Virus record (IMG/VR): IMGVR_UViG_3300032213_001453
DNA: 34,951 nt
From: an uncultured virus (IMG/VR IMGVR_UViG_3300032213_001453)
Lineage: Duplodnaviria > Heunggongvirae > Uroviricota > Caudoviricetes
Reading direction: 5' to 3' (one strand)
The position numbers were made by a program, and so were the translations under genes. Below are positions 12,669-28,355 of this stretch, piece after piece (positions within the stretch are counted from its first letter, which is position 1; the number at the start of each line of letters is the position of its first letter). Under the pieces are notes generated by a model that was not told the origin of the DNA, made no database searches, and worked only from the letters and a program-made list of their open reading frames with translations.

Positions 12669-13017
12669 ATTGCGTGAAGTTGAAGAGAGCAATGTTGAGG
12701 TTAATCTTGACGAGGTTGCCGGTGCTCTTAGTTCCGATGAGTTTAAGGAGTTCTCAGATTGCATGGCTATTGTTCAGCGTATTCTTGATCAGCCAAATGC
12801 TATGATGGGTTCTGAGGCTTTGATTGCTGCTGCTAAGCTTGCTGCGCTTAGAACGAAGTTGGGTGCGCGCGCCCAGTATTACAAGACTTCTGAGAAGTCT
12901 ATTCTTCAGCGTAGAAGGAAGGATCTGCTTATGCTTATGTTTACTGCTTTGGAGGAAAATATCAATACACTTAAGTTGCTTGGGCGTGTTGAGGTTGGAA
13001 TGACGGGTATGCGATGA
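12655..13017 (+). CDS. Hypothetical helical protein
   Basis: AAGGAAGG SD before ATG 12655; ATGA overlap with the Cas4-like gene. Confidence 0.7.
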   Translation: MTISRLREVEESNVEVNLDEVAGALSSDEFKEFSDCMAIVQRILDQPNAMMGSEALIAAAKLAALRTKLGARAQYYKTSEKSILQRRRKDLLMLMFTALEENINTLKLLGRVEVGMTGMR

Positions 13018-13802
13018 AGGGGCTTATAAAGAACCTGAAGGCTGCTCAGCCGGAGCCTAAGAAGCCAAAGACTGTTCCTGAAGTTGTTTCTGATGATGTT
13101 GCTGATCTTGAGAGATCTCTTGTCAGCGCTATTGGCGAGAAGCTTGAGGCGTCTAATGGGAGCTTTTGGAAGCAGAGCGATAGTTTTGCTCCTTCTAGCA
13201 CTAACCAGTGTGCGAGATTTGCTGTGTACAGGTTCCGGGGATATCAGCAGGAAATTTCTATTCTTGGCCAAACTAGGCGAATTTTTGATCTTGGTAATCG
13301 CATTGAGGATGCTGTAGGAGATCTTTTCAAAGATCTTGGTGTTCTTGTTAGCGAGCAGATTGAGATGAAAATCGAAGAGCCTGCTCCTGTTCGTGGTTAT
13401 ATCGACTTTATTATCGACTGGAATGGTGAAAAGGTAGTTGAGTGTAAGTCTATCAATGAGGCTGGCTTTGCTTATCGCAAGGTTTATCACAAGCCAAAAG
13501 ACGAGCATTTTCGACAGATTCAGTTCTATCTTCATGCTATGAACCATGATTCTGGCTTTGTTTTCTATTATTGTAAGAATGATTCCGCCATCCTTCCCCT
13601 GCTTGTTAAGCGGGATGACAAATTTATTGAAACAACACTCAATAAGTATGCTAGAATATATAAAGTCTTTAAGGATGGAAATCTTCCGGAGAGGCCCTAC
13701 AAGAAAACTTCACAAAACTGTACCAGATGTGACGCTTTCACCCATTGTTGGGCTGATCAAGAGCAAGGGATTCCAGTTAACTTAAGGAAGAAGGAATCAT
13801 GA
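13014..13802 (+). CDS. Cas4-family / PD-(D/E)XK exonuclease
   Basis: N-terminal Cys (NQCAR), GYID..VECKS, QIQFY, and a C-terminal CTRC.....C Fe-S motif. Confidence 0.85.
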   Translation: MKGLIKNLKAAQPEPKKPKTVPEVVSDDVADLERSLVSAIGEKLEASNGSFWKQSDSFAPSSTNQCARFAVYRFRGYQQEISILGQTRRIFDLGNRIEDAVGDLFKDLGVLVSEQIEMKIEEPAPVRGYIDFIIDWNGEKVVECKSINEAGFAYRKVYHKPKDEHFRQIQFYLHAMNHDSGFVFYYCKNDSAILPLLVKRDDKFIETTLNKYARIYKVFKDGNLPERPYKKTSQNCTRCDAFTHCWADQEQGIPVNLRKKES

Positions 13803-13805
13803 TCA

Positions 13806-14120
13806 GTGGATTTACAATCAAAGATTTGCGCCAATCCAGATTGCCTTTCCTTATTTGAACCACAGGTTCATAATGCGATCTATTGTAGTACAGATTGTCG
13901 TAAAGTTATAACAAATAAAAATGTTCTAGATCGTTATTATAAGAAAAAAGAGCGACGAGCCAATAAGAAAAGGGTTTGCAGCAATACTGATTGTAATACA
14001 ATATTATCAATGTATAATGATGAAAATATTTGCGAGGCTTGTAAGACAAATAGATTAATTGATCGTCTTGCTAGTTGGGGATGGGATAAAGATAAACTTA
14101 TAGAAGATTGGTCATTCTAA
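13806..14120 (+). CDS. Cys-rich zinc-binding protein
   Basis: CANPDC, YCSTDC, CSNTDC and CEAC. Confidence 0.7.
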   Translation: MDLQSKICANPDCLSLFEPQVHNAIYCSTDCRKVITNKNVLDRYYKKKERRANKKRVCSNTDCNTILSMYNDENICEACKTNRLIDRLASWGWDKDKLIEDWSF

Positions 14121-14719
14121 TGCGTGTTGTTAAGATGATGAAGCATAAAGACCCAATCCCAGCAGTGATTATGGCCGTAGATGCCTCGTCTACGGCCATA
14201 GCTATTTCTATTTTTGATCAAAAGAAAGATAAGACTCTTTTGAAAGAAGTTGGCAAACTTAAGTTAGAAAGAATGCCAATGAATATGAAGCTAAAGATTA
14301 TTACGTCTTTCTTTAAAGAGTTTTTTGATAAATATAAAATTGACTATGTTTTTGTTGAGCAGCCTATTTACATACAAAATCCTGCTACTAGCAGAGTTTT
14401 GTCTCAGGTTTCGGGACACGTTATTGGAACCTGCCTAAATTATTGCGATAATGTATCTGAAGTAACTATCGCCAATTGGAAAAGTTTTATTGGGTATAAG
14501 AATGTAAGTAAAGCTGAGAAAGAAAGCTGGACTAGACAATTTGGCGAAAAAGAGTCAAAGAAGATGGCGGCTTCAGAAAGAAAGCAAAGAACTATTAGAA
14601 TTGTTCATGAGAAAATATCTGGCATAGATCATATAAATGACAACGATATTTGCGATTCAATTGGAATTGGATTGTATTCTTTAGACTTAATCAATAAGGA
14701 GGACTACGATGGCACTTGA
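14120..14719 (+). CDS. ruvC: RuvC-like resolvase/nuclease (RNase H fold)
   Basis: MAVDASST, VFVEQP, WKSFIG...K and NDICDSIGIG catalytic motifs. Confidence 0.8.
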   Translation: MRVVKMMKHKDPIPAVIMAVDASSTAIAISIFDQKKDKTLLKEVGKLKLERMPMNMKLKIITSFFKEFFDKYKIDYVFVEQPIYIQNPATSRVLSQVSGHVIGTCLNYCDNVSEVTIANWKSFIGYKNVSKAEKESWTRQFGEKESKKMAASERKQRTIRIVHEKISGIDHINDNDICDSIGIGLYSLDLINKEDYDGT

Positions 14720-15005
14720 ACCTTATAAAGATAGAGAATGGCTCTATCATCATTATGTAAAGAAGCGCATGAACTTGAAAGATATCTGCGAACTTCTTGA
14801 AAAGAAATACAATATTCGCATCACCACTCAGGCTGTATATAACTGGGCGGTGAAGTTTGACTTGCTCAAGTATAGAGGCAAGGGCCGGAAGATTGGCGCT
14901 AATACGCAAGGTCCAAAGAAGGCTAGCTCTATGGGCAAAAGGCCGGGACGAGAGCGTGAGGAACGTATGCGGGCAATGGCGAAGGCCAGAAAAAGAAATA
15001 AATAA
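14709..15005 (+). CDS. Basic HTH DNA-binding protein
   Basis: YKDREWLYHHYV..RMNLKDICE...ITTQAVYNW HTH-like pattern; GGAGG SD. Confidence 0.65.
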   Translation: MALEPYKDREWLYHHYVKKRMNLKDICELLEKKYNIRITTQAVYNWAVKFDLLKYRGKGRKIGANTQGPKKASSMGKRPGREREERMRAMAKARKRNK

Positions 15006-15030
15006 AAACTGAGGCGTGGCGTCGTTGCGA

Positions 15031-15039
15031 TGCTATACT
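15031..15039 (+). promoter_or_regulatory. Extended -10 promoter element
   Basis: TGc-TATACT in the intergenic gap, followed by a leader hairpin and a GAAAGGA SD. Confidence 0.55.
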
Positions 15040-15079
15040 GTCGATGTCCCCAAGTTGGGGGCATACGAAAGGAAGCAAA

Positions 15080-16081
15080 ATGACTGCTACTCTTGCTCCT
15101 GATCTTTCTTTCGAAGAAAAACTTCGAAATAGATCTGAGAACACTCAGCACCTTGATTTTCAGGTAGGAGATCTTTCCTTTAACGCTGGCAAACGTCCAA
15201 GCGTTAGTATTTCCGGGGAAGATTATTTTCTTACCGATGGGTCTTTTCGGCAGATTGCCGAGGAGATGAAGATTCCAGTTCCTTATGCTAGACGCATTCC
15301 TGATGATCTTCTTTCTTATACTGTGAATTATTTTATCAATAATAATAGATCGAATCATATTGCCGCTCTTTCTGAGGACGGACATATTCGCTCTTTTATG
15401 AAGACTAATACTCCTTATGTTTCGAACACTGAGATGTTTGATGCTGTTCTTGAGGCAACTGGTGGCGATTATGATCTTCGTTATGCGAAGATGAGCGATA
15501 CCATTACTTCTTTTTCAATCCTTCCATCAAGTTATCGTGAGTCAGTTGATGGCTCAAATCTTTTTGGTGGCGTTAAGGTTGTTTTCTCAGATGCTTGGGA
15601 TAGGCATCCTTCGATTGATTCTTACATTTGGCGTGAACTTTGCTCCAATGGAATGATCAATGAACTTGAGAGTCGCAAGTTCCGTGTCGCTGGTTCATCG
15701 CACGACGATGTTCTTCGTCAGATTAGAGATTTCTCTGTTATTGCCATTGAGAAGCTGCCTGATCTATTTGATAACTTCAATAAGCTCCTTGAGGAAGAAG
15801 TCAAGGATTATGTGAAGATTATCCGCCAAGTTGTTCTTGAGTATAAGCTTCCCAATAAGGTTCAGACTCGCCTGCTTTTTTGGGCTGTGAACCCTGATTT
15901 CCTTGCGACTATCAGCAATGATAAGATTGAGAATATGCATGATGTTGTCAATCTTATTACTTATACCGGAAGTCATGATGGAGAACTCAGTCAGGATATG
16001 CGTGAGCGTCTCCTTCAGATCGGCGGAAATCTTACGCTGAACCATCAGGAACGCTGCAATTCTTGTGGAAGTTCTTACTGA
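15080..16081 (+). CDS. DUF932-like domain protein
   Basis: GGVKVVFSD...IWRELCSNGMI resembles the DUF932 RxxCxNG motif; C-terminal CNSCG; GAAAGGA SD supports ATG 15080. Confidence 0.6.
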   Translation: MTATLAPDLSFEEKLRNRSENTQHLDFQVGDLSFNAGKRPSVSISGEDYFLTDGSFRQIAEEMKIPVPYARRIPDDLLSYTVNYFINNNRSNHIAALSEDGHIRSFMKTNTPYVSNTEMFDAVLEATGGDYDLRYAKMSDTITSFSILPSSYRESVDGSNLFGGVKVVFSDAWDRHPSIDSYIWRELCSNGMINELESRKFRVAGSSHDDVLRQIRDFSVIAIEKLPDLFDNFNKLLEEEVKDYVKIIRQVVLEYKLPNKVQTRLLFWAVNPDFLATISNDKIENMHDVVNLITYTGSHDGELSQDMRERLLQIGGNLTLNHQERCNSCGSSY

Positions 16082-16113
16082 AATACGTTTGTTTCTCCTT
16101 TTTATCCGATACA

Positions 16114-16148
16114 ATGTGCGTGCGGGGCAGAAACCCCGCACGCATACA
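16114..16148 (+). terminator. Strong intergenic hairpin (no U tract)
   Basis: TGCGTGCGGGG-CAGAAA-CCCCGCACGCA perfect 11-bp stem. Confidence 0.55.
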
Positions 16149-16162
16149 TCGACAAAAGATAG

Positions 16163-16501
16163 GTGAGTATGTCTAACACAAGTAAAGATGCGTTCAAGAT
16201 TGTGGAGAAAGAACTAATCAAGTTCGGTTCCTATGAGAACGCAAAGAAGATTCTTTCTAAGTACATGATCGGGTCATCTTATGATCAAGAGATGGTAGAG
16301 AAGATCCTCGTCATTCTAGTTGCCGAATTTAGACGAGAGATTGAACGACTTAATGGCAATCTTCCTGAGGATGATGCTGAGGCTGCTCTTGTGATTGAGC
16401 GTAAGGCTTCAAGCAAACCTCGCCAAAAGAAGGGCAGTAGTAAGATTGTAATTGAGTCTGCCGGTGATATTGATATTGATGACTTAGAAGAATCTGATTA
16501 A
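16163..16501 (+). CDS. Hypothetical protein
   Basis: 112-aa ORF with an acidic tail; start GTG 16163 or ATG 16169. Confidence 0.7.
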   Translation: MSMSNTSKDAFKIVEKELIKFGSYENAKKILSKYMIGSSYDQEMVEKILVILVAEFRREIERLNGNLPEDDAEAALVIERKASSKPRQKKGSSKIVIESAGDIDIDDLEESD

Positions 16502-16505
16502 TATA

Positions 16506-16514
16506 TGGTATAAT
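16506..16514 (+). promoter_or_regulatory. Extended -10 promoter, probably yielding a leaderless mRNA
   Basis: TGg-TATAAT followed 6 nt later by ATG 16521, with no SD. Confidence 0.65.
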
Positions 16515-16520
16515 TAGCAT

Positions 16521-17126
16521 ATGTCCGAAGAACTTGAAAAAGTTGAAACTATTTTTGATAAAGCCAAGAAGGTTGAGCAAGTAGGTCTGCTCAGCCTTAA
16601 GGGTTATTCTGTCTCCGATATAGCGGAACTTGAACAGGTATCTCCAAATACCGTTAGAGATTACGTTACTCAATACAAGACTTTCTTAGAGGGTCGTGCT
16701 GAAGATGATCCGTACTTTCTGGAGAAGGTCCAGTTTAATACGATTAAGGCTTTGGCTGAGTTTGATGAGATTTCAAAAGAATCTTGGGAGACTGTCGAAA
16801 TAGCTACAAGAGAGGGTATGGTTTCTGCAAGAAATCAGGCTCTTAAGTTGTGTCTGGATATTGCTACGAAGAAAGCCCAGCTTCATCAGTTGATGGGAGG
16901 AACAAAGAGTGATGGCGAATATATCGCCCGAATGCAGAAGGCCGAAACTGTAAACCAAATTATCTCTAAGGTTATCAAAGACATTGTTGCTGATTGTGAT
17001 GCTTGTAAGCCGAAGGCTCGCATTGCTTTGCAGGAGGCGTTCAATATGATGAATACCGAGGGCTATAGCTCTCCCCAAGAAGCCAGCGATGATCTCAACA
17101 TTGAAGATGCAGAAGTCGTGGAATAG
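16521..17126 (+). CDS. Probable terminase small subunit (N-terminal HTH + helical domain)
   Basis: LKGYSVSDIAELEQVSPNTVRDY HTH; lies just upstream of the large subunit. Confidence 0.6.
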   Translation: MSEELEKVETIFDKAKKVEQVGLLSLKGYSVSDIAELEQVSPNTVRDYVTQYKTFLEGRAEDDPYFLEKVQFNTIKALAEFDEISKESWETVEIATREGMVSARNQALKLCLDIATKKAQLHQLMGGTKSDGEYIARMQKAETVNQIISKVIKDIVADCDACKPKARIALQEAFNMMNTEGYSSPQEASDDLNIEDAEVVE

Positions 17127-17421
17127 ATCGTTCCCTAGACGATCAACTGTCGCTTGGGTAGTGCTGGCATTGTATATTCTTATATACGATGTAATCGCAA
17201 TGATCTTAAACGATAGAAATAAATCTAGGGGGTCCAATGTTAAGTACGAAACATTTTCTGATGGTTGTTGGAGAGGTGTGTATCATCCTGTTGCTCGCTG
17301 GCCTATTTGGGCTTGTATTTTGATTATAGTTAAGCACCTTGCTGCTCCAAATTTTTTGCACGAATACGATCCTTTGAAGATCGTTGGCAAGACTATTAGA
17401 TTTATTAGGAAGAGGTTATAG
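17107..17421 (+). CDS. Small membrane protein (start uncertain)
   Basis: Two hydrophobic segments (VAWVVLALYILIYDVIAMIL; WPIWACILIIV) and a basic C-terminus. Confidence 0.65.
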   Translation: MQKSWNRSFPRRSTVAWVVLALYILIYDVIAMILNDRNKSRGSNVKYETFSDGCWRGVYHPVARWPIWACILIIVKHLAAPNFLHEYDPLKIVGKTIRFIRKRL

Positions 17422-17422
17422 G

Positions 17423-19213
17423 ATGGGCGAAGATTTTTATGGTGCCAATTTAGACTTTGATGATTTTGATAGACTTTTAAAGAATGAAGATCTAAATGAA
17501 GAGCCTGTTCCTATTCAGAGATTTGTGACTGATAAGAAGTATCTTGGTCTTCCTCCGCTTAGCGATATTCAGCTTGAAATCGCAAGGCACATTACTCAGA
17601 TTTTTAAGCCGGAAACTCTCTCAATGCTAATGGGGGAGCAAGAGGGCATCGATTACTACAATAGGTATACTGTCAATGAAGTAATTTGTCAGTTAGGAAA
17701 GGGATCTGGTAAGGATCACGTTTCCAGAGTTTCTCTCGCTTACATTAGTTACCTTCTTCATTGTCTTCGTGATCCTCTTGAGTATTTCGGAAAAGCCTCT
17801 GGTGTTTATATCGACTTGGTTAACTTGGCTGTAAACGCCAAGCAGGCTCAGCAGGTTTTCTTTGATCCTTTGAAAAACCTTTTGCTCGCTTCCCCTTGGG
17901 CTAATGATGTCGGCTTTGAGCCGCGTGTTCAAGAAATCTTTTGGTTTGATCGTCCTGTTCGAATGTTCTCCGGCCACTCTGAGGCGGAAGGCTGGGAGGG
18001 TTATGAAGTTCTGACAGTTGTGCTTGATGAGATCTCTGCTTTCAAAACAGACGGAGAACTTAAGGGGCAACTTAGAAATAAAGGATCTGCCTCCGAGATT
18101 TACGAGATGGCTAGAGCTTCAATTACTTCACGCTTTCCAAGTGTCGGAAAGGTTGTTCTTCTTTCTTTCCCAAGATTCAGGGGAGACTTCATTCAGCAGA
18201 GATATAAGTCTGTTATTGACGACTTAGTTGAGCAGGGTGGTATCGTACTTGATGAGAAGATGGGCAACCGTGGAGGCTATCGTGAGGCCCAGTCTTGGGC
18301 GCTTAAGGCTTCGACGTGGGAAGTCAATCCCACCCGCCATAAAGAGGAGTTTGAGAACGAGTTCAGGCGCGATCCTATCATGGCTCGCGCTAGGTTCATG
18401 TGCGAACCCCCAGAGATGGTGGACGCCTACTTCAGAGATCCGGAATCTGTTCGTGCTGCGTTTAGATACAAGCAGACTCCCGTCGATGAAGAAGGCAGAT
18501 TTGCTGAGTGGTTTTTGGGTAGTGATACTCATGCGAGATATATCCATGTTGATCTTGGTCTTAAACGAGATCGTGCTGCTGTTTGCATGGTTCATTCGCC
18601 GGGGTTTAAGCAGATCAAAACTCTTGGCGGTGTAGAAAATCTTCCTATCATTGAAATGGATTATATCCAGTCTTGGAAGGCAGAAGATAACTCCGAAATT
18701 CCTTTTGCAGCGATTAGAACAACGATTGCCGAATTGACTAGGCGCTTTACTGTTGTATCGGTTACTTTCGATCAATGGAACAGTGCTGATATGATTCAGT
18801 CTCTTAGATCTCTTGGTATCAATGCAGATCTCCATACAGTAGCGAAAAAGGATTACGATACTTTATCTACTGCTATCTATGATGGAAGATTGCGTGGCTA
18901 TTGGAATGATATCTTGGTGGAAGATGAGCTTCTTAAACTTAAGCTTATCAATAACACTAAGGTTGACCATCCGACAACTGGCTCCAAGGATTTGGCTGAC
19001 TCAGTTGCTGGCGCTACGTTTATGTGCATTTCTAATATGTCATCAGATTTTGAGATTGATATTGAAATATTAGATGCTGTCGATTTCACCACTCTTGAAG
19101 GTGAAGAAGCAGATGGCGCTATCAAGAGAACTTTGACATCCAAGGGTGTAATTGAAACAGAAAAACCAAAAGAACTGCCAGATGATATTAAAAGCTGGCT
19201 TGAGATTATCTAG
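17423..19213 (+). CDS. terL: Terminase large subunit
   Basis: LSDIQ Q-motif, Walker A GKGSGKD, Walker B VVLDE, LLSFP coupling motif, nuclease IHVDLG / TFDQW / KVDHP..GSKDLADS. Confidence 0.92.
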   Translation: MGEDFYGANLDFDDFDRLLKNEDLNEEPVPIQRFVTDKKYLGLPPLSDIQLEIARHITQIFKPETLSMLMGEQEGIDYYNRYTVNEVICQLGKGSGKDHVSRVSLAYISYLLHCLRDPLEYFGKASGVYIDLVNLAVNAKQAQQVFFDPLKNLLLASPWANDVGFEPRVQEIFWFDRPVRMFSGHSEAEGWEGYEVLTVVLDEISAFKTDGELKGQLRNKGSASEIYEMARASITSRFPSVGKVVLLSFPRFRGDFIQQRYKSVIDDLVEQGGIVLDEKMGNRGGYREAQSWALKASTWEVNPTRHKEEFENEFRRDPIMARARFMCEPPEMVDAYFRDPESVRAAFRYKQTPVDEEGRFAEWFLGSDTHARYIHVDLGLKRDRAAVCMVHSPGFKQIKTLGGVENLPIIEMDYIQSWKAEDNSEIPFAAIRTTIAELTRRFTVVSVTFDQWNSADMIQSLRSLGINADLHTVAKKDYDTLSTAIYDGRLRGYWNDILVEDELLKLKLINNTKVDHPTTGSKDLADSVAGATFMCISNMSSDFEIDIEILDAVDFTTLEGEEADGAIKRTLTSKGVIETEKPKELPDDIKSWLEII

Positions 19214-19221: not shown

Positions 19222-19500
19222 TTGAATATTAGTGATCTTAATAAAGCCCTTTGCAGAAAGAGGGGCATGAATACTTCGTTGTTCTTTGAGGACTTCGAAC
19301 AGATGACTCCGAAGAAGAAGTTTGAAATCATCTCTATCTGTGAGAGGTGCGAAGTAAAGAATGAGTGTAGGGAAGCAGGCGCTGCTCAGAAGGACGGTTA
19401 TGGCCTTTGGGGAGGAGTCTTCTTTAAGAAGGGTCGTATCCTTAAGACAAATTCGTCTCGCAGAACATCACCAAAAGCCTCTCCAAATAGCGTCAGATAA
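19222..19500 (+). CDS. whiB: WhiB-family transcription factor
   Basis: ALC...LFF...ICERCEVKNEC...YGLWGG; GGAG SD before TTG. Confidence 0.9.
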   Translation: MNISDLNKALCRKRGMNTSLFFEDFEQMTPKKKFEIISICERCEVKNECREAGAAQKDGYGLWGGVFFKKGRILKTNSSRRTSPKASPNSVR

Positions 19501-20003: not shown

Positions 20004-20191
20004 ATGCTTTAGCAGATGGCAAGGAGAAGCTCCCTGCAGATTTCTGCAGGGAGCTTTTTCTTCATATTGATAGTTTTCTTGCTTCAATTAGTCAGCAAAG
20101 TTTGGTTGATAGCAATCAGGCTCAAGATTTTTGTCTTGATCTTCGACTTGTTGTCAAAGATTACGAAAATGAGGATGATATAGATGTCTAA
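20000..20191 (+). CDS. Hypothetical protein
   Basis: TTGA-coupled 63-aa ORF overlapping the next start. Confidence 0.5.
   Translation: MNALADGKEKLPADFCRELFLHIDSFLASISQQSLVDSNQAQDFCLDLRLVVKDYENEDDIDV
20027..20063 (+). terminator. Intrinsic terminator-like hairpin inside the next ORF
   Basis: AAGCTCCCTGCAG-ATTT-CTGCAGGGAGCTT perfect 13-bp stem followed by TTTCTTC. Confidence 0.65.
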
Positions 20192-20489
20192 TATGTCAAA
20201 TATTGATGCGAATATTCAGATGGTCAGGGAGCAGCTGAGTGGCCTTGTTGGCTGCACAATTGTTCAGGTAGACGCTAGTTCTGCTACTGAGACTGGATCT
20301 GACGCTGTTTGGCCTGTTATTTTAGTCAAAGATGCGAATGATAACATTTTTCAGCTTGAGATCGCTTGTGATGCCGAAGGCAATGGACCCGGGCATATTT
20401 TTCTGGGCCTTATAAGCGGTAAAAATTTCGATGACTACACCCCGATTTCCAACAAAAAAAGCTGGGAATTGCTTTGGAATGGATTGTAG
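20184..20489 (+). CDS. Hypothetical protein
   Basis: GAGGA SD; LVGCTI...DAEGNGPG motif. Confidence 0.7.
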   Translation: MSNMSNIDANIQMVREQLSGLVGCTIVQVDASSATETGSDAVWPVILVKDANDNIFQLEIACDAEGNGPGHIFLGLISGKNFDDYTPISNKKSWELLWNGL

Positions 20490-20492
20490 ACT

Positions 20493-20520
20493 TTGAAAAT
20501 AACCCATTATTTGATATAAT
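20493..20520 (+). promoter_or_regulatory. Sigma70/SigA-type promoter
   Basis: TTGAAA-N16-TATAAT with an extended -10 (TGa-TATAAT); GAGGT SD downstream. Confidence 0.7.
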
Positions 20521-20540
20521 GGTACACCGAGGTATTCGAT

Positions 20541-20765
20541 ATGTGGAAAAATCAGATTGAGTACTTCGATGAGCTTGTTGAGAAACAAGTAGAAGTAAAA
20601 ATAAATCTCCTCCATACAAACAAGGTATACATAGGGTATATACGAGCTATCTGTAGTGATGGCGTATTTGTAACTAGGCAGACGGGCTTTAGATATAGTG
20701 TCGATATCCGGGAAGTTGTTTATATCCCTTATAAAGCCATATCCTGCGTAGAGAGAGGACTGTAG
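20541..20765 (+). CDS. Hfq/Sm-like fold protein
   Basis: Q..YFDEL..KQVEVKINL.....IGYI......VFV ... VYIPYKAISCV aligns by eye with the Hfq helix, Sm1 and Sm2 (VYKHAISTV). Confidence 0.55.
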   Translation: MWKNQIEYFDELVEKQVEVKINLLHTNKVYIGYIRAICSDGVFVTRQTGFRYSVDIREVVYIPYKAISCVERGL

Positions 20766-20777: not shown

Positions 20778-21314
20778 ATGAATGTTTTTACGAAGTCTAT
20801 GATTGTAGTTGCAATTTCTGTAGTTATTGCTATTAGTGCAATTGCTACAACTGTTGCTTCTGCTGGTACGGGAAGTTTTAGTAATGATTATAGCATTGTT
20901 TTTGTAGAAGAAGTTTCGCCGGTAGTTGTGGAAGAAGTTACTACTACTACAACTATTGATTTAAGTTGGTTGAATACTACTACGACAACGGTTTATGTAG
21001 CTCCAGTTGTTGTAGTAGAAGCTCCTCCTGTTATTGAGACTTCAGTTAGCTCTGATGGTTCAGTTTGGGATGCTATCGCGCAGTGTGAGTCTGGCGGTAA
21101 TTGGGCAATTAATACGGGTAACGGGTTTGGTGGTGGACTTCAGTTCATGCATCAACGTAGTTATTCGACGTGGCTTTCTTTTGGTGGTGGAGAGTTTTCT
21201 CCAAATCCTTGGGAAGCTTCTAGAGAGCAGCAAATAATAGTCGCTGAGAAAGTTTTGGCTTCTTCCGGTTGGGGTGCTTGGCCGGGTTGTTCTAGTAAGT
21301 TAGGTCTGCGTTAG
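20778..21314 (+). CDS. rpf: Resuscitation-promoting factor (Rpf)-type lytic transglycosylase, secreted
   Basis: N-terminal signal peptide/TM, T/V/E/P-rich linker, then [28 protein letters not shown]...TW...GG...ASREQQI.VAEKVL...GWGAWPGC. Confidence 0.93.
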
Positions 21315-21353: not shown

Positions 21354-21385
21354 AATGGAGGCTCAATTAGAGCCTCCATTTTTTT
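21354..21385 (+). terminator. Intrinsic terminator (possibly bidirectional)
   Basis: AATGGAGGCTC-AATTA-GAGCCTCCATT with a T run after and an A run before. Confidence 0.85.
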
Positions 21386-21397
21386 GTATTAAATTCA

Positions 21398-21601: not shown

Positions 21602-22975
21602 ATGTCGTACATTAGAATTGCGAATAAGGCAGACGATGTTAATCGTTTGTTTTTGGAAAAGTTAGGTCTTTCGACAAAGCGTGAGAATGAGAATACAATT
21701 GGCCAATTTGGTTCGGGTTCTAAATTCGCTCCAATTGCTGCTTTGCGTAATGGTTGGGATTGGATTAATGTTGGCCGAGATAGTCTTGGCGAGTATAAAA
21801 TGCAGTATGTTGTTCAGGATGAGGGTGGTATTGAGTGTGTCTATTATTTGTATAATGATGAGGTATTGAAACCTTCTTCTTTTACTGTTGATGCCGGTGT
21901 TCTTTCTTGGGATTCTGAGTTTCAGATTTTTCGTGAAGCTTTTTGCAATGCTTTGGATGAGTTCACTGATAGCGGCAAAGAGTATTCGATTGAAGTTGTT
22001 GATGAGGTAAAGTTCGTTGATGGAGAGTTTGCTGTTTATCTGAGTGCAGTCAAGCCTCTGCTTGATATTATCGAAGACTTTGATAAGTATTTCTCTATCA
22101 AGCGTACTCCGCTTTCCAGCAATGATTATTCTGGAAAGATTTTCAAGTCCTTTGATCATGAGCCTAATTTCTACTACAAGGGTGTTCTTGTTCATTCAGA
22201 ATCAAGTTCTGATCTTTCAATCTTTGATTATGAGTTCAATAACATTACGCTTAACGAAGAACGTAGAGTTCGTAATACTTATGAACTTGGTACTAAGGTT
22301 ACGTCAATGTTGTATCAGCTTAATGGTAATGATGCTAATCATGTTGATATTGCAAAGCAGATGATTTATTGTGCAAATAAGAAGCGCTGGGAGTGGAGTA
22401 TTCCTTCCTACAATATTGAATCATGGTTTGGCAATAAGACTGATAGTGCATTTCTTTCAGCTTGGAATGAGATTCATGGTGACGCTATTGCTGTAAGTTC
22501 AGATTTGATGCGGTTTAAGACACAGTTTTCTATTCGCAATCAGTCTGTTGTGGAAATCAAGAGTGATTATTTGTATAAGATTCTTGGTCGCTGTGGTGTT
22601 CCGACTGCGGAAGATATTCTTGGTGATGAAGTTGAGTATGAGTTTATGACTCTTACTGGTAAGAATCGTAATCTGTATGAAGAGTCTCTTGATATGGTTA
22701 AGTCTTTTCTTCCTGACTATGATTTCCATGTTAGGGATACTAAGTTCTTTGTCCCTCAGGGTGAACAAGATTCTGTTCTTGGTGTTGCAAATATGCAAAC
22801 ATCCAATGTTTATATCTCTATCAATTCCTTTAGAGATCAGAGTACGTTGATTGGCACTCTTGTTCATGAATACGATCATCTTAAGAGTAAGCTTCATGAT
22901 GATGATCTCGGTTTTAGAGCAGAAGCTGACAATCATATCGCCAATCTTATTCTTAAGTTGAATGGGAAAGGATGA
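21602..22975 (+). CDS. GHKL/HATPase-like protein with permuted motif order and a C-terminal HEXXH motif
   Basis: LGLSTKR...IGQFGSGSK (aa 21-41), FREAFCNALDE (aa 110-120), and TLVHEYDH near the C-terminus; AAGGAG SD. Confidence 0.7.
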   Translation: MSYIRIANKADDVNRLFLEKLGLSTKRENENTIGQFGSGSKFAPIAALRNGWDWINVGRDSLGEYKMQYVVQDEGGIECVYYLYNDEVLKPSSFTVDAGVLSWDSEFQIFREAFCNALDEFTDSGKEYSIEVVDEVKFVDGEFAVYLSAVKPLLDIIEDFDKYFSIKRTPLSSNDYSGKIFKSFDHEPNFYYKGVLVHSESSSDLSIFDYEFNNITLNEERRVRNTYELGTKVTSMLYQLNGNDANHVDIAKQMIYCANKKRWEWSIPSYNIESWFGNKTDSAFLSAWNEIHGDAIAVSSDLMRFKTQFSIRNQSVVEIKSDYLYKILGRCGVPTAEDILGDEVEYEFMTLTGKNRNLYEESLDMVKSFLPDYDFHVRDTKFFVPQGEQDSVLGVANMQTSNVYISINSFRDQSTLIGTLVHEYDHLKSKLHDDDLGFRAEADNHIANLILKLNGKG

Positions 22976-23014
22976 TGCTTAGTGCTACAATAATGTAGAG
23001 ACGAGGGAGATTAT

Positions 23015-23155
23015 GTGTATTTTTCTGACTTTATCCGTTTTACAATTTTTGTGTTATTGGTTGCTTTCTTTGGAATGGCGATCTTCAGCGTATTTGGAAT
23101 TTTCCTGATCCTGTTTATTGCTGCTCCAATTATCTTTTTTATTGCTCTATTGTGA
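23015..23155 (+). CDS. 46-aa hydrophobic membrane peptide (not in ORF track)
   Basis: GAGGGAG SD, GTG start, MYFSDFIRFTIFVLLVAFFGMAIFSVFGIFLILFIAAPIIFFIALL; TGc-TACAAT at 22983. Confidence 0.6.
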   Translation: MYFSDFIRFTIFVLLVAFFGMAIFSVFGIFLILFIAAPIIFFIALL

Positions 23156-23162
23156 GGTTAAA

Positions 23163-23459
23163 GTGGCAAATGAAAATTATTATGTAGTAGAGGCTAGAGT
23201 TGCAGTTCAAATTACTGAAGCTCTTTCTGTAGATGAAGCTGCTAGGAAAGCGGCAAGGATTATTGAAAATCAGTATGGAGTTAATCTTAGCAATTGGTAT
23301 CTTCGTGTTTTCGAGTATGGTGCCGGTGAAGATATAGGTCCTATTGCTGAGTATTTTTCTAATCCTTCCGGTTCTAAGTTTCGTAAGATTGATAAGAATA
23401 TCGAACAACATGAGGAGTTGATTAAGAATGAGCAGTCAGATGGAGTTGGAAGAGCCTGA
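23163..23459 (+). CDS. Hypothetical protein
   Basis: GAGGT SD before GTG 23163. Confidence 0.7.
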   Translation: MANENYYVVEARVAVQITEALSVDEAARKAARIIENQYGVNLSNWYLRVFEYGAGEDIGPIAEYFSNPSGSKFRKIDKNIEQHEELIKNEQSDGVGRA

Positions 23460-23658
23460 TTTTGATGCTCCAGATTTTCTTGGAGAGTTTGAAGATAGGC
23501 CTAGTGATAAATATTGTGGCACTCCTTATTGTAGCGGTGCTAGTTATTTTGATCCTATGTGGCAAGGCTTTTGGGTTACTGGTTTTCAGTGCCCTTGTGG
23601 TTGTTCTGAAGAGCTTTATATTTGTGATGATCCAGATGAAGGTTGGTGGAAAGCATGA
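23428..23658 (+). CDS. Acidic Cys/Trp-rich hypothetical protein
   Basis: GAGGAG SD; CGTPYC...CPCGC. Confidence 0.65.
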   Translation: MSSQMELEEPDFDAPDFLGEFEDRPSDKYCGTPYCSGASYFDPMWQGFWVTGFQCPCGCSEELYICDDPDEGWWKA

Positions 23659-23891
23659 ATTATGAATTCAAAAGAATGCTTGCTAATAGTTACAAGCCTT
23701 TAGAATCTCCTCCCGACAATCCTTATGAAGATGTTGATCTTTGTTATCATGATTTTGATGATGAGGGTGAACATTGCATTGAGAATTGTGGACTTCCCAC
23801 TTGGGATGAGTATGATGCAGAAATGCAAGATCGGGCTGATGATTTTGCTATTGACCAATATATTAGCTCTAGAGAGGATTATAATTACTAA
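23655..23891 (+). CDS. Acidic hypothetical protein
   Basis: ATGA overlap; CYH...CIENC; very D/E-rich. Confidence 0.65.
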   Translation: MNYEFKRMLANSYKPLESPPDNPYEDVDLCYHDFDDEGEHCIENCGLPTWDEYDAEMQDRADDFAIDQYISSREDYNY

Positions 23892-24295
23892 TGACTGTTA
23901 TTGATATGTCGAATGACTATGTAGGAGAAATTATGACTACATATAAGATTACTGGTGAGATGGTTGACAATATTCTTTGCACAGCCCTTGAAGGTGGTAT
24001 TAATTATTGGTGTAGTTATGTAGAACCTCGTCATAATGTTTGGCCTGAGGGTGCTGGTTGTGCAAGTGAATGTCTTAGTCGTGGTTGTGATCTTTCTATC
24101 TTTGATTCTGAAGAAGAGGATGACAATGGTAATCCGGTTGAGTATGTTCTTACACTTTCAGCTTTTATTCATGGTGTTGAGAAAGCTGCAATTTGGGCTA
24201 GTATGAGTGTCAATGATTTTTATGAGAATCATGATGCTTCAGATGCAGATAATGTTATTCAGTTTGCTCTATTTGGAAGGCTTGTTTATGGATGA
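23891..24295 (+). CDS. Hypothetical phage protein
   Basis: ALEGGINYW...DASDADNVIQFALFG.LVYG; start could be the second ATG, after AGGAG. Confidence 0.75.
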   Translation: MTVIDMSNDYVGEIMTTYKITGEMVDNILCTALEGGINYWCSYVEPRHNVWPEGAGCASECLSRGCDLSIFDSEEEDDNGNPVEYVLTLSAFIHGVEKAAIWASMSVNDFYENHDASDADNVIQFALFGRLVYG

Positions 24296-24494
24296 ATATA
24301 CTGTTTCTTTAAGCAATACGTTCGAAGCTGATAGTTTCTTAGATGCTGTTCAGCAGATGATTGCTTGGGTTTCTGATTATGCATATTCTGCTGGGTATAG
24401 AATTAGCTGGACAGAAAGTATTGTTGATGGTGTTCGTAATGATAAAAGTGTATTTGTAGATGCTGAGAGACTTCTTGGAGATATCTATGGGTAA
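24288..24494 (+). CDS. Hypothetical protein
   Basis: Start overlaps the previous stop; tight gene packing. Confidence 0.6.
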   Translation: MDEYTVSLSNTFEADSFLDAVQQMIAWVSDYAYSAGYRISWTESIVDGVRNDKSVFVDAERLLGDIYG

Positions 24495-24636
24495 AAAACT
24501 TAGAGATAAAGATTATCGTACTGGATACGAGCAGGGCTTTAAAGACGCTGTTAATGTCGCTATGATGATTGTCAATAAAGAATTTGATCTACACAATGAG
24601 AAAGCGAAAAATGAGAAAGAACACAGCAGTCGCTGA
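24487..24636 (+). CDS. 49-aa hypothetical protein (not in ORF track)
   Basis: GGAG SD; MGKKLRDKDYRTGYEQGFKDAV... Confidence 0.55.
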   Translation: MGKKLRDKDYRTGYEQGFKDAVNVAMMIVNKEFDLHNEKAKNEKEHSSR

Positions 24637-24793
24637 TTTCAAAGCTTTTATTCTTCCCGGAGTAATTAAATGGTTCGGGAAAGATGATAAGGTTGCTATT
24701 AGAACTGCGTGGAATGATTGGACTGACTCTTTGTGTAAGAGCGGTCAGATTACTTTGCGCCAATATGAAACATGGACTAGTCCATTTAACTAA
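24611..24793 (+). CDS. Hypothetical phage protein
   Basis: DKVAIRTAWNDWTDSLCKSGQIT..QYETW motif. Confidence 0.65.
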   Translation: MRKNTAVADFKAFILPGVIKWFGKDDKVAIRTAWNDWTDSLCKSGQITLRQYETWTSPFN

Positions 24794-24807
24794 GAAAGAG
24801 TGTTATT

Positions 24808-24954
24808 ATGAAAAGTCAGTATGTTGTTATTGAAGTTACGTATGATCCAGAAGTTATCGACGCTCCCAATGTTTGGGATTGGAGTTTGCTTTTTGGTGAA
24901 GATATCGAAGTTCTTTTTGCTAGCGATTTTTTCGATTCAGATAAGGATGAGTGA
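24808..24954 (+). CDS. 48-aa acidic protein, paralog A (not in ORF track)
   Basis: MKSQYVVIEVTYDPEVIDAPNVWDWSLLFGEDIEVLFASDFFDSDKDE; similar to the next ORF. Confidence 0.7.
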   Translation: MKSQYVVIEVTYDPEVIDAPNVWDWSLLFGEDIEVLFASDFFDSDKDE

Positions 24955-24956
24955 TC

Positions 24957-25115
24957 ATGGGCGTTAAAGCTCAGTATGTAACTTTGAGATTGGAATTTGA
25001 TTCAGAGTATTCCTCCAAACCTTCCGATTGGAATTGGGATAGTTTGTTGGAAGAAAATGTAATGGTTATTTATGCCGGAGATGTATTCGATCCTAAGGAG
25101 ATTGAACGTGACTAA
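24957..25115 (+). CDS. 52-aa acidic protein, paralog B (not in ORF track)
   Basis: MGVKAQYVTLRLEFDSEYSSKPSDWNWDSLLEENVMVIYAGDVFDPKEIERD; AAGGA SD. Confidence 0.7.
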   Translation: MGVKAQYVTLRLEFDSEYSSKPSDWNWDSLLEENVMVIYAGDVFDPKEIERD

Positions 25116-25323
25116 AACTAAAACTACTACGTATTATGTTGAAATTCCCACTTCTGTAACTATTAAGATGTCTGCTGAAGAATTTGATAGGCTTACTATG
25201 TTTAACTTTGAAGATGTTATTGAGAAGCGACTTCGTGAGCAAGTTCCATTGTTTAATGATCATGTTCATATTCCGGTAGACTTCTTTGATTTCTCTAATT
25301 CTTCCGTTGTGGATAAGTATTGA
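25108..25323 (+). CDS. Hypothetical protein
   Basis: AAGGAG SD before GTG 25108. Confidence 0.6.
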   Translation: MTKTKTTTYYVEIPTSVTIKMSAEEFDRLTMFNFEDVIEKRLREQVPLFNDHVHIPVDFFDFSNSSVVDKY

Positions 25324-25324
25324 T

Positions 25325-25549
25325 ATGGCTACTTTTGCTATTCCAATGTTTATTCATGTAGAAGTGGATGATGAAAAAATCAATGCGATTAGTGAAGATA
25401 TTGTTTTTAACAATGAGCTTTTTGATTTGGCTATTACTAATCTCATCAAAGATGAGCTTCAGTCTTATTGTAAGAATACGCCTAATATGGTTGAGCTTAG
25501 TATCTTTATTAAAGATATTCCCTATGAAGATTATGTCTACGAGGATTGA
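25325..25549 (+). CDS. Hypothetical acidic protein
   Basis: ATG one base after the previous stop. Confidence 0.6.
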   Translation: MATFAIPMFIHVEVDDEKINAISEDIVFNNELFDLAITNLIKDELQSYCKNTPNMVELSIFIKDIPYEDYVYED

Positions 25550-25552
25550 GTT

Positions 25553-25924
25553 ATGACTGAAAAATTGATTGGTTATATCGGAGTTGATTCGGGTCAGATG
25601 ATGTTGTGTGATCCTTGTTATATCGATAGCATTTGGGAAAAGACAGAACCAGATTTTAATAATCTTGTAGATTATGAATCTCAGTTTAATTATGGTGGAG
25701 CAGCACACGCAACTCTTTCAGATAAGAACTCCGGTATTCTTATGGATGGAGTTGGTGCTGTTTGTTCTACTGGATGGGGTGATGGTTCATATCCTGTTTA
25801 TGTTACTTATGAAGGTAATCGTATTAGCCAAATGCGTATTGAATTTATTTCCGACAAGGAAGAATGTTTTTATTGCTGTCACATTGATTGTGACGGGGAA
25901 TGTCAAGAAGATGAAGATATCTGA
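25553..25924 (+). CDS. DUF4241-like protein
   Basis: IGVDSGQMMLCDP...STGWGDGSYPVY motifs; Cys/acidic tail. Confidence 0.7.
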   Translation: MTEKLIGYIGVDSGQMMLCDPCYIDSIWEKTEPDFNNLVDYESQFNYGGAAHATLSDKNSGILMDGVGAVCSTGWGDGSYPVYVTYEGNRISQMRIEFISDKEECFYCCHIDCDGECQEDEDI

Positions 25925-25930
25925 TATACT
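25922..25930 (+). promoter_or_regulatory. Extended -10 promoter, probably leaderless
   Basis: TGa-TATACT followed 6 nt later by ATG 25937, with no SD. Confidence 0.55.
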
Positions 25931-25936
25931 GTCACT

Positions 25937-26164
25937 ATGAATTTTAAACCGTTTACTCTTTATGAGTTTTATCTTGAAGGTAACTCAGTCCCGCAAACTG
26001 GGGTTGTAACTGATGTTCAGGGAGATAAGATTTTGATGAAAATTGAGCATGGAGATCGTCATGGAGATTTAGTATTTGTAAATGCCTCCGATATTGTTGA
26101 TGATTCTTTTGACAGATACGATACAGCCGACGAAAAGCTTTATGCTTGGTATGATGGAGAATGA
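25937..26164 (+). CDS. Hypothetical protein (possible small beta-barrel)
   Basis: TGVVTDVQGDKILMKI...VFV pattern. Confidence 0.65.
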   Translation: MNFKPFTLYEFYLEGNSVPQTGVVTDVQGDKILMKIEHGDRHGDLVFVNASDIVDDSFDRYDTADEKLYAWYDGE

Positions 26165-26165
26165 T

Positions 26166-26387
26166 ATGAAACTAATTGCTCCACTTACCGCTATTGCTAT
26201 TCTAGTGTTTTTCTTTTTTATATCCATTGTGATTAGTGGTCTTGCTATTAGTACCGCTAATTCTTGGGTTTTGGGTGGCAACTTTTCTGATGCTTGGTCT
26301 ATTGTTTGGCAGAAGAAGCTGGTTGTTTTTGGTTGGAGTCTGTTGTTCTTTTCTCTGCCTGCACTTTCGAGAAATGTTAAGAAGTAA
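26166..26387 (+). CDS. Small membrane protein
   Basis: GGAG SD before ATG 26166; two hydrophobic segments. Confidence 0.65.
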   Translation: MKLIAPLTAIAILVFFFFISIVISGLAISTANSWVLGGNFSDAWSIVWQKKLVVFGWSLLFFSLPALSRNVKK

Positions 26388-26425
26388 GTTTTTTTGTATT
26401 TCAAGTTTTCCACATACTAAAGACG

Positions 26426-26576
26426 AGCCTAATTAGCAACCTAAATTGCTGGCCGCAATTATTCGGCAATTTATTCATCCACCGATATCGAACCGATTCC
26501 GAAAACTTAATCGCCACATTTGACTCAGACAGGTTACTCCGACTAAATTGGTGCTATCAAAGCAACACAGTTAATC
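26426..26576 (+). repeat. Conserved intergenic element, copy 2, containing a promoter
   Basis: Shares four blocks with 21398-21564; TTGACT(26520)-N18-TAAATT(26544). Confidence 0.8.
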
Positions 26577-26588
26577 AATCGGAAAGAG

Positions 26589-26837
26589 ATGAATGTTATG
26601 CGACAAGTAAATGTAGATAACTTTATTGAAGGTATCGATAATATTAGTCTTTCGTATAATCATGAAACTAGGAACTTTGATTTCCTAATTGGAAAGACTG
26701 TTCGTGGTAGAAATATGTTTAAGATTGGAGTGATAGTTTCTATTGATTATTACAAAGATTACTATGGACATAGCAATGTTGTTGCTGTATTGGATAATGG
26801 CCGGAGAATGAATTGCAGAAAGATGGGGCTTAAGTAA
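26589..26837 (+). CDS. Hypothetical protein
   Basis: First ORF after element copy 2. Confidence 0.65.
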   Translation: MNVMRQVNVDNFIEGIDNISLSYNHETRNFDFLIGKTVRGRNMFKIGVIVSIDYYKDYYGHSNVVAVLDNGRRMNCRKMGLK

Positions 26838-27052
26838 TGACTGATATTGATTTGAGTATGCCTATTATTTGTGAGCGAGATACTTACAAAGGTGAGGCTT
26901 ATTGTATTGATTGCTTTAGTCCTAGAGCAAAGCGATTCTTTTATTTCTACAATAGTCATGGTCCGTTTTGTTCTAAGAAGTGTTATGCGAATTTTATTTG
27001 TGTAGATTATGAATTGCTCCCTAAACTAGACTTTCGAGGTTCAATTAGATGA
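26837..27052 (+). CDS. Cys-rich zinc-finger-like protein
   Basis: CIDC...FCSKKC; TAATG coupling. Confidence 0.65.
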   Translation: MTDIDLSMPIICERDTYKGEAYCIDCFSPRAKRFFYFYNSHGPFCSKKCYANFICVDYELLPKLDFRGSIR

Positions 27053-27291
27053 CTATTTCTTATGATCGTGTGTGTGATGTGTTTGATTCTAAGAATGTAG
27101 AAAGTATTGCATTCTGTTTTAAAGAAAAAGTTATGCTTGTAGTTTTCAAGACTTCTGCTTCTTATCGTTATTACAATGTTCCTGATCATATCTTTGGCGC
27201 AATTCTTGCTTCCAAGAATATTGGTTCAACATTGCATCATCTTGTTTCGAAAGATCCTTCTACTTTTCCTTATGAGAAAGTTGGTGAGTAA
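27049..27291 (+). CDS. KTSC-domain protein
   Basis: SKNVESIAF......LVVFK....YRYYNVP..IF..IL.SK.IG pattern. Confidence 0.8.
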   Translation: MTISYDRVCDVFDSKNVESIAFCFKEKVMLVVFKTSASYRYYNVPDHIFGAILASKNIGSTLHHLVSKDPSTFPYEKVGE

Positions 27292-27683
27292 TGAATAGCT
27301 CAAAGTTTATTGCTGAGATTCAACTTATGTATCCAGATATTGAGTGGAATAAGTTCTTTGACGCAGATCGTGCTTTAAATTGGGAACTTTGGCATGGTGT
27401 TTTGCCTGAGGGTTATTGGACAGAAGCAGAGCCACTTGAATTTTATGAGTGGAAAGATTGGGAGAAAGCTCAAACAGATATCATTGAGATTCTTTCAGAT
27501 CTTCCGGCATTTGTTTATTATGAATGTGACACTGATTGTATTCTTCTTTCTAATCCCGAAGATGATGAAGCAAATTGGTATGAAGATATGTATGGTAATT
27601 GGGAATGGTGTGGATATGATTATGAGAAAGTTGATCCACGCAAAGTTGTTATGCATGATGAATCCTATAAGCAAATCTTTTGA
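27291..27683 (+). CDS. Acidic Trp-rich hypothetical protein
   Basis: TAATG coupling; 130 aa. Confidence 0.7.
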   Translation: MNSSKFIAEIQLMYPDIEWNKFFDADRALNWELWHGVLPEGYWTEAEPLEFYEWKDWEKAQTDIIEILSDLPAFVYYECDTDCILLSNPEDDEANWYEDMYGNWEWCGYDYEKVDPRKVVMHDESYKQIF

Positions 27684-27943
27684 TTGGAGATATTGTGGAA
27701 ACTAATATTGAAGTTGTTGTTGATATCCCAGATTGGTTGACTTGTCTTACTCTTAATGAGTTGGAAAGTATTGAGACTATTGAGATAGGTCATACTGATG
27801 ATCTTAAAATTAATGACAATGGTTTTAAAGTTTGGCTTTGCCGTTGTGATACTTATGATGGTATGCCATATGATAATGCTGTAACTATTGAGAAGTATAT
27901 TGAGAATCGTTGGGTTGAAGTTCTAATGTATGAGGCTAACTGA
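27680..27943 (+). CDS. Hypothetical protein
   Basis: TTGA overlap; GHTDDLKI...VWLCRC..DG PY..VTIE motif. Confidence 0.65.
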   Translation: MIGDIVETNIEVVVDIPDWLTCLTLNELESIETIEIGHTDDLKINDNGFKVWLCRCDTYDGMPYDNAVTIEKYIENRWVEVLMYEAN

Positions 27944-27956
27944 AAGGTATAATGAT

Positions 27957-28355
27957 ATGTCATTGAATTGGAATCTCACTAATATTAAGAATTACGAAGA
28001 GCTTTGTTGGCAGAAGAATGAAGACGATACTGTTAAACTTAATGTTGTTACAGAGTCTTTGATCTTTATCGGTATGGCTATCGGTATTGGAAAGATTACT
28101 GAAGATAATGCTTCTGAAGTATTCGGACGTATTTCTATGTATGAGAAGTTGTTTGGTGCAACTATGTGTGTCTTTAATGATAAGGGTAAGGAACAAGTTT
28201 TCATTACTCCTGAGGATGTTAATGCTCATATTGGTTTGTCTACAAATGTGAGTAAAGAAACAGAAGCATCTTTTCGTAAGCGTATGACAGATAATTTTAT
28301 GCGTGACAAGAAGCGTCAGTTTGAGTATGCAGTTAAGTCTGAAGAAAGTGAGTAG
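27957..28355 (+). CDS. Hypothetical phage protein
   Basis: GAAAGGT SD before ATG 27957; HIGLSTNV motif. Confidence 0.7.
   Translation: MSLNWNLTNIKNYEELCWQKNEDDTVKLNVVTESLIFIGMAIGIGKITEDNASEVFGRISMYEKLFGATMCVFNDKGKEQVFITPEDVNAHIGLSTNVSKETEASFRKRMTDNFMRDKKRQFEYAVKSEESE

Follow-up and report, generated by a model that had tools for sequence, protein, structure and literature searches.

Does a small phage gene carry an RNA chaperone of the Hfq/Sm type into a bacterial phylum that generally lacks one? The question is posed by an open reading frame (ORF) for a 74-aa protein in a 34,951-nt stretch of DNA from an uncultured virus of the Caudoviricetes (IMG/VR record IMGVR_UViG_3300032213_001453; "the window" below means this whole stretch). 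An initial annotation, made by eye from the letters, had read the ORF as a phage-encoded Hfq/Sm-like protein. Structure prediction indicates that the product very probably has an Sm fold, with Hfq as its nearest solved form, and a canonical RNA chaperone role is disfavoured. At the level of models, the present result is a fold assignment without a function. The ORF starts and stops exactly where the initial annotation had placed it:

20541..20765, + strand: coding sequence of the 74-aa protein of predicted Sm/Hfq-like fold, from the ATG at 20541 to the stop codon TAG at 20763-20765.

This ORF is almost certainly a real, conserved and phage-specific gene. An all-against-all HMMER search over 1.84 billion representatives identified three true relatives, one of them the cluster of the window copy itself; six further matches, all to long repeat proteins (P0004-P0009), were judged spurious, being multi-stretch and of low complexity (P0005 was inspected). 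A profile search gave 34 clusters at 90% identity, each of exactly 74 residues, and together with the loci of viral and metagenome contigs these form the family set used here, 36 sequences of which 35 are distinct. Its members are 45-65% identical to the window copy. The ratio of nonsynonymous to synonymous substitution rates (dN/dS) is 0.29-0.69 in ten pairs from five loci, which implies purifying selection on the gene, of a rather relaxed kind as far as these sequences tell; at these loci identity is 82-84% for the terminase, compared to 50-57% for the 74-aa protein. Every copy sits on viral or metagenome contigs, up to ~100 kb in length. No cellular copy was found in 185,579 prokaryote species (one genome each), and the search therefore provides no prophage and no link to a host. 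A tblastn search of the protein against 50,697 phage records gave no match at E up to 1. The window copy and its 99% identical twin P0001 deviate from the family at three nearly invariant positions, with C for N38, F for D50 and Y for Q52, and the window copy is the most basic member and the only near-neutral one, with an isoelectric point (pI) of 7.75.

AlphaFold2 (AF2) modelled the protein with a predicted local distance difference test score (pLDDT) of 84.2 when run on 5 sequences, and with a pLDDT of 86.6 and a predicted template modelling (TM) score of 0.74 when run on 36 sequences, the five models spanning 83.8-86.6. The predicted topology comprises a helix at residues 5-15 and strands at 18-23, 29-37, 41-45, 60-63 and 67-72, and the models show the N-terminal helix and five strongly bent antiparallel strands that characterize the Sm fold. 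In a Foldseek search of the PDB all 34 matches listed are Hfq entries, with TM scores of 0.64-0.86 and a root-mean-square deviation of 1.7-3.0 for most; the best E value is 1.1e-3, and none is at or below 0.001. Ranked below Hfq are de novo SH3 barrels, LSm/SmAP, GerQ, YaeO (7.7-7.9), RimP and WYL domains. An independent model from the ESM Atlas (pLDDT 0.69) has clusters of Hfq, Hfq_1, the RimP C-terminal domain and DUF2642 as structural neighbours. Because the AF2 runs, the Hfq matches and the ESM Atlas neighbours agree in this way, the Sm fold is well supported as a prediction, and the nearest solved structures are those that the by-eye reading had named. The 74-aa proteins are a new sequence family of phage-encoded proteins with a predicted Sm/Hfq fold, whose parts map onto the window as follows:

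20589..20675, + strand: residues 17-45, strands 1-3, Sm1-like, with G32, N38 (C in the window copy), D40, G41 and F43, placed by DSSP of the models, conservation and the hhalign register.
20676..20714, + strand: residues 46-58, the long loop between strands 3 and 4, at a pLDDT of about 70-83 in the models, an insertion relative to Hfq.
20715..20756, + strand: residues 59-72, strands 4-5, Sm2-like I-P-Y-x-A-I-S-x-V-E, placed by conservation and by global hhalign onto Y-K-H-A-I-S-T-V.

The loop between the Sm1 and Sm2 parts had been described as longer than in Hfq, and in both models 13-14 residues indeed separate strand 3 (41-45) from strand 4 (59/60-63); in the global alignment with E. coli Hfq the loop is longer by 10 residues, inserted as 2 + 8. 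Its consensus, E-M-G-D-D-Q, is acidic, and the window copy reads R-Q-T-G-F-R-Y. Since G49, D50 and Q52 are each conserved in at least 90% of the sequences (the window has F50 and Y52), the loop is not a random insert, judging from this conservation. In strand 5 and its approach A66, I67, V70 and E71 are invariant in the 36 sequences, and S68 is conserved in at least 90%.

Two readings bear directly on the fold, and we consider each of them very unlikely. In one, the predicted Sm fold is an artefact of modelling, the true fold being another one or none: small barrels are readily over-predicted and the alignment is shallow, with an effective number of sequences (Neff) of 2.3 from one clade at 45-65% identity, but two AF2 runs and the ESM Atlas model agree, conservation follows the strands and the Sm1 glycine, and an independent profile alignment gives the same register. 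In the other, the protein is a WYL-type sensor of a ligand or of single-stranded DNA, or another nucleotide-binding Sm-like barrel. WYL domains do appear among the structural neighbours, but with scores well below those of Hfq; the Pfam WYL model is not matched at E up to 1, and the 74-aa protein stands alone, without the DNA-binding domains of WYL proteins.

For the sequence comparison, bacterial Hfq (Pfam PF17209; solved structures 6gwk, 4y91, 5szd, 3hfo and 1kq1) was represented by a seven-sequence alignment of our own (E. coli, Proteus and five Hfq loci from Actinomycetota-labelled genomes), made because a search with E. coli Hfq alone gave only near-identical enterobacterial proteins. Q8, G34, D40, K56, H57 and I59 are invariant in this alignment. 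Comparison of the family with this Hfq alignment by hhalign gave a probability of 21.9% and, as a single pre-chosen comparison, a P value of 9.7e-4 over 46 columns; from a 7-sequence alignment the probability was 17.6%. In the local run the real score of 20.1 stands against shuffle means of 10.1 and 10.5 and against scores of 10.5 and 9.6 for the reversed-alignment controls. A score of 21.4 was reached by none of 200 template-shuffled alignments (maximum 20.0) and by one of 200 query-shuffled alignments (maximum 22.5). The register places N4-L23 on L7-L26 of Hfq and G32 on G34, and in global or low-mact mode P63-V70 on Y55-V62, with A66, I67, S68 and V70 on A58, I59, S60 and V62. All three blocks that the initial annotation had matched to Hfq are thus recovered, the third in global or low-mact mode, and since hhalign finds the same register, the by-eye alignment is also the best objective one. 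Strand 5 keeps its A-I-S-x-V core, and the Sm1 glycine, G32, is kept in 35 of the 36 members. Against the single E. coli Hfq sequence the hhalign probability was 0.25%, and BLASTP against E. coli Hfq found just one 11-residue match, out of register. We regard the sequence signal as real but weak, so that homology is plausible and not proven; distant homology to Hfq, as opposed to convergence, appears to us an even call.

A number of results weigh against a protein that works in the manner of Hfq. None of the 36 members matches Pfam Hfq, Hfq_1 or LSM at E up to 1, while E. coli Hfq, as positive control, scores 8.2e-30 against Pfam. For the window protein, Pfam and NCBIfam gave no family (the NCBIfam search was null), PHROGs and PADLOC searches found no known family, and sequence searches of the PDB (phmmer and profile) returned no Sm protein, only chance-level rows. 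In Hfq, Q8, K56 and H57 form the proximal site, Y25 is the aromatic residue of the distal face, and R16, R17 and R19 line the rim. Of the six invariant Hfq columns, the family clearly retains just the counterparts of the Gly and the Ile. Position 5, aligned with Q8, is mostly K, with some Q, T or R; positions 64 and 65, whose register with K56 and H57 depends on the low-confidence global alignment, are Y, F or H and variable (K, S, A, L, G, R, V or I), respectively; position 22, aligned with Y25, is N, S, G or E; and positions 13, 14 and 16, under the rim arginines, have no conserved basic residues. The family is also acidic, with a median pI of 5.04, 30 of the 35 distinct members below 6 and net charges from -6 to +1, compared to a pI of 9.99 for the E. 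coli Hfq core, and its best-conserved family-specific feature is the acidic loop G-D-D-Q. Sm proteins carry an Arg in the loop between strands 4 and 5, in Sm/LSm proteins as an Arg-Gly motif. The 36 sequences have no conserved Arg there, and the family differs from archaeal and eukaryotic Sm/LSm proteins (PF01423) in the missing Arg-Gly as well as in the missing LSM profile match. Rfam and tRNA scans of the window found no structured RNA family and no tRNA.

Compared to bacterial Hfq, then, the 74-aa protein is of the same size class and shares the Sm1 glycine and the A-I-S-x-V of strand 5, but the family has no profile match, no equivalents of K56 and H57, no Y25 aromatic residue and no rim arginines, mostly K in place of Q8, a 10-residue longer, conserved and acidic loop between strands 3 and 4, and an acidic instead of basic character. 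Because the proximal, distal and rim RNA-contact residues are missing and the family is acidic, the protein, as judged from sequence, is not a canonical Hfq, and the missing contact residues make a simple "phage Hfq" unlikely. The initial annotation had suggested that the phage brings its own RNA chaperone. Two legs of that proposal stand, the Hfq-like fold (as predicted) and the Hfq-poor phylum; the step to a chaperone does not, given that 0 of 36 members match the profiles, the contact residues are not kept and the family is acidic.

The Hfq-poor phylum deserves a closer look. In a sample of 401 Actinomycetota genomes, 5 score over the cut-off of the Pfam Hfq model and 6 match at E up to 0.01; Hfq was found in none of three genomes chosen among the matches to the Rpf-type protein encoded beside the 74-aa gene. 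The statement that Actinomycetota generally lack Hfq thus agrees with our sample and with PMC6789036, according to which sequence searches found no Hfq homolog in actinobacteria; a 2015 preprint proposes a remote actinobacterial candidate (10.1101/026195). This scarcity is one reason to consider a functional Hfq stand-in, a hexameric matchmaker of small RNAs and mRNAs with proximal, distal and rim surfaces, carried by the phage as its host has none. Hfq is also the best structural match, and there is weak in-register profile similarity, but the proximal, distal and rim residues are not conserved, the family is acidic and it has no profile membership, and we consider the stand-in decidedly improbable. 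Three genomes of 1.4-1.5 Mb labelled as Actinomycetota (L087, L088 and L090; G179, G205 and G153) have an Hfq domain at the C-terminus of proteins of ~200 aa with a Cys-rich N-terminal region, and a genome of ~1.8 Mb (L091, G330) encodes an Sm-like protein of 71 aa that, at 22 bits, narrowly misses the Hfq cut-off.

The function that we rank first, tentatively and at somewhat less than even probability, is that of an RNA-binding Sm-type oligomer with a specificity other than that of Hfq, its ring, RNA binding and target being extrapolated from the models. Stand-alone Sm proteins made of a helix and five strands (Hfq, SmAP, LSm) bind RNA. The phage protein would be a highly diverged protein of the Sm/Hfq fold, with an N-terminal helix, five strands and, between strands 3 and 4, a long loop specific to the family. 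The protein would assemble into a ring through pairing of strand 4 with strand 5, as in Sm proteins, and would bind single-stranded RNA at the pore side, where the N38-x-D40-G41 loop and the I-P-Y64 loop would meet. Going by Sm topology, these conserved residues could form a pocket there. A four-copy oligomer model gave a median of 0.36 against a mark of 0.42, with one control at 0.38, and is uninformative either way.

The same conservation and charge data can be read differently, with the protein as an acidic Sm-fold module or decoy, ring or monomer, that binds a basic host or phage protein (for example a nucleic-acid-binding factor) and not RNA. Rof/YaeO, which is acidic and binds and blocks Rho, offers an analogue. 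Such a role would account for the acidic family with its conserved G-D-D-Q loop and conserved aromatic residues, for the missing Hfq RNA-contact residues, and for the fast evolution evident in the low identity relative to the terminase (50-57% vs 82-84%) and in dN/dS values of up to 0.69. However, Hfq lies ~3 Z units above YaeO in the structural comparison, no partner has been identified, and in the window copy the acidic loop motif is gone and the pI, at 7.75, is near neutral. We rank a protein-binding module second, as an unlikely but serious alternative to the RNA-binding oligomer.

The surroundings of the gene provide the context in which an RNA-binding oligomer might act:

20493..20520, + strand: promoter-like site, TTGAAA (20493-20498), 16 nt, then a TG-extended -10 TATAAT (20515-20520), with 11 of 12 consensus matches and a putative function.
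20528..20536, + strand: ribosome-binding region CGAGGTATT, with GAGG 8 nt 5' of the ATG, invariant in 5/5 loci.
20778..21314, + strand: coding sequence of a 178-aa Rpf-type transglycosylase (PF06737, 8e-31).
21354..21386, + strand: intrinsic-terminator-like hairpin with an 11-bp stem and the loop AATTA, followed by a T run.

That the gene has its own near-consensus promoter-like site and Shine-Dalgarno sequence, as originally described, is confirmed by these matches and by their conservation. The promoter-like site ends 20 nt 5' of the ATG, and the TTTGATATAAT and CGAGGTATT blocks are retained in all five aligned loci while the intergenic DNA around them diverges; a comparable promoter-like site lies 5' of the Sm-like gene of L084. 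The motif is not enriched across the window (28 matches vs 31.4 expected). A 101-aa ORF without a family match (20184-20489) lies directly 5' of the promoter; both the window and L003 (3586-3969) have it, and L001 and L084 do not, a whole-small-gene indel next to the promoter.

The Rpf gene lies directly 3' of the Sm-like gene in all five loci and overlaps its end in L084, L003 and L085. Its product has a hydrophobic N-terminal segment, a Thr-rich linker and an Rpf-type transglycosylase domain, and scores below the cut-off of the RpfC/Rpf models of NCBIfam; it could be a lysin of the signal-anchor-release type or a secreted "resuscitation" factor. The N-terminal segment is weakly hydrophobic and rich in Ala, Ser, Gly and Thr. 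One full-length Rpf match, in an Acidimicrobiales metagenome-assembled genome (L048), was set aside as a cellular high-GC Rpf without a Sm-like gene; its neighbour, as read from the ORF translation, is presumably a superoxide dismutase-like gene. The stem of the terminator-like hairpin differs in L001 and L003 yet still pairs, owing to compensatory changes, and the T7 run is invariant; a scan had placed this palindrome on the minus strand. Between the Rpf gene and the terminator, L084 (4797-4856) and L003 (4770-4900) contain repeated palindromes (GGCCTTATAAGGCC; GGGC-AAA/TTT-TAAAAA units), and the window has neither kind.

Given the conserved promoter, the Rpf gene directly following in 5/5 loci and the hairpin with its T run, the Sm-like and Rpf genes can reasonably be taken to form a two-gene transcription unit. 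The conserved promoter with its TG-extended -10 would drive the Sm-like gene as the first of the unit, the Rpf-type muralytic enzyme would come second, and the hairpin terminator would end it. The RNA-binding oligomer would then be a post-transcriptional regulator of phage transcripts, possibly those of its own operon.

The idea of such phage proteins is less new than was assumed, as Sm/Hfq-like folds in phages are already in print (T4 GoF/MotB.1/Frd.2, PMC12152347; Adephagia gp39, PMC11373665) and in annotation. The T4 proteins GoF and MotB.1, as well as Frd.2, are Sm/LSm-like, with function unassigned and no confident multimer model (PMC12152347). Like the 74-aa family, they are small and confined to phages, without sequence relatives outside them; in both cases the Sm/LSm likeness emerged only from structure prediction, a post-transcriptional role is suspected and multimer models are not confident. 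Compared by description, the GoF family differs in its size of 14-17 kDa, in an extra C-terminal domain and in a five-strand motif whose N-terminal helix is not stressed, and according to PMC12152347 its nearest neighbours are FeoA-type SH3 barrels as well as Hfq. Adephagia gp39, which PMC11373665 calls Hfq-like from its predicted structure, likewise comes from an actinophage, and so do the "Hfq-like domain-containing proteins" of Mycobacterium phages Phabba and Tonenili in BFVD. These proteins, at 132-152 aa, are about twice as long, and for gp39 no sequence relation to the 74-aa protein was detectable (hhalign probability 0.05%). The best BFVD match is a 65-aa protein of Gordonia phage Waits, with an E value of 2.2e-3 and TM scores of 0.70/0.79. 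For a characterized phage-encoded Hfq the literature yielded nothing beyond the paper on the LSm-like T4 proteins and the Adephagia table, in a search that left subscription journals mostly uncovered and so does not show absence.

T4 itself borrows its host's Hfq, which serves transiently at the neck as a second genome gate (PMC12929587). A virion-assembly helper can be envisaged on this model, a six-fold ring transiently capping the neck of the filled head and encoded by the phage as the host offers no Hfq. The precedent is E. coli Hfq as the second "genome gate" on T4 gp14 (PMC12929587), and the 74-aa gene is located 1.3 kb downstream of that for the terminase. But the T4 contact, according to that paper, uses a positively charged Hfq face and K31, Q33, T49, S65 and R19, which the acidic family does not retain, and the authors there regard the use of Hfq as lineage-specific to T4-like phages. 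The conserved partner is moreover the Rpf gene and no neck gene, and the window has no structural module. We consider such a helper extremely improbable; if it were true, a host-borrowed assembly factor of one phage lineage would be phage-encoded in another.

Actinomycetota are a large phylum in which sequence searches have revealed no Hfq, and it is an open question what chaperones their small RNAs. A phage protein of predicted Hfq fold with its own putative strong promoter is a well-defined candidate for RNA binding in this phylum, and the conserved coupling to an Rpf-type cell-wall enzyme gives a concrete reporter for a regulatory role. Besides the GoF family of T4 and the "Hfq-like" proteins of mycobacteriophages, the 74-aa family would be a third lineage of phage Sm-fold proteins, unrelated to them in sequence.

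The actinobacterial host that had been presumed for the phage is borne out by its gene content, described here for the + strand, on which all of it lies:

17384..19213, + strand: large terminase, by family match.
19222..19500, + strand: second WhiB, by family match.

The terminase shares 42% identity with its counterparts in Streptomyces phages LukeCage and Coruscant (Stanwilliamsviridae), and the RecA-Cas4-RuvC...terminase order is the same as in phages of the LukeCage/Coruscant type. Of the 80 best genomic relatives of the Rpf domain, 79 are from Actinomycetota, judging by their record titles. The two WhiB genes, the Rpf domain, the Streptomyces-phage-like terminase and the shared gene order together indicate an actinobacterial host, and the gene order shared with Coruscant suggests a low-G+C aquatic relative of the 130-kb Stanwilliamsviridae Streptomyces phages.

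The replication and recombination block encodes an exonuclease, WhiB, a DnaB-type helicase, a primase, a single-stranded DNA-binding protein, a dCMP deaminase, a DNA polymerase of 1148 aa, a UvsX/RecA-like recombinase, a Cas4-type exonuclease and RuvC. Over positions 1-17400 the order of the RecA-like gene, Cas4 exonuclease, RuvC, small genes and terminase is shared with Coruscant (L093) at low identity. The two WhiB-like genes are separate (2350-2676 and 19222-19500), and three small ORFs lie between the second one and the 74-aa ORF. Downstream of the two-gene unit, positions 21602-22975 encode a conserved 457-aa protein of unassigned function (phrog_8203, 1.7e-23), the N-terminus of which weakly matches the N-terminal region of the RIIA lysis inhibitor (E 0.0083). 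From 22000 to 34951 the G+C content falls from ~0.42 to ~0.35, and this part of the window is densely filled with small + strand ORFs, mostly without family matches.
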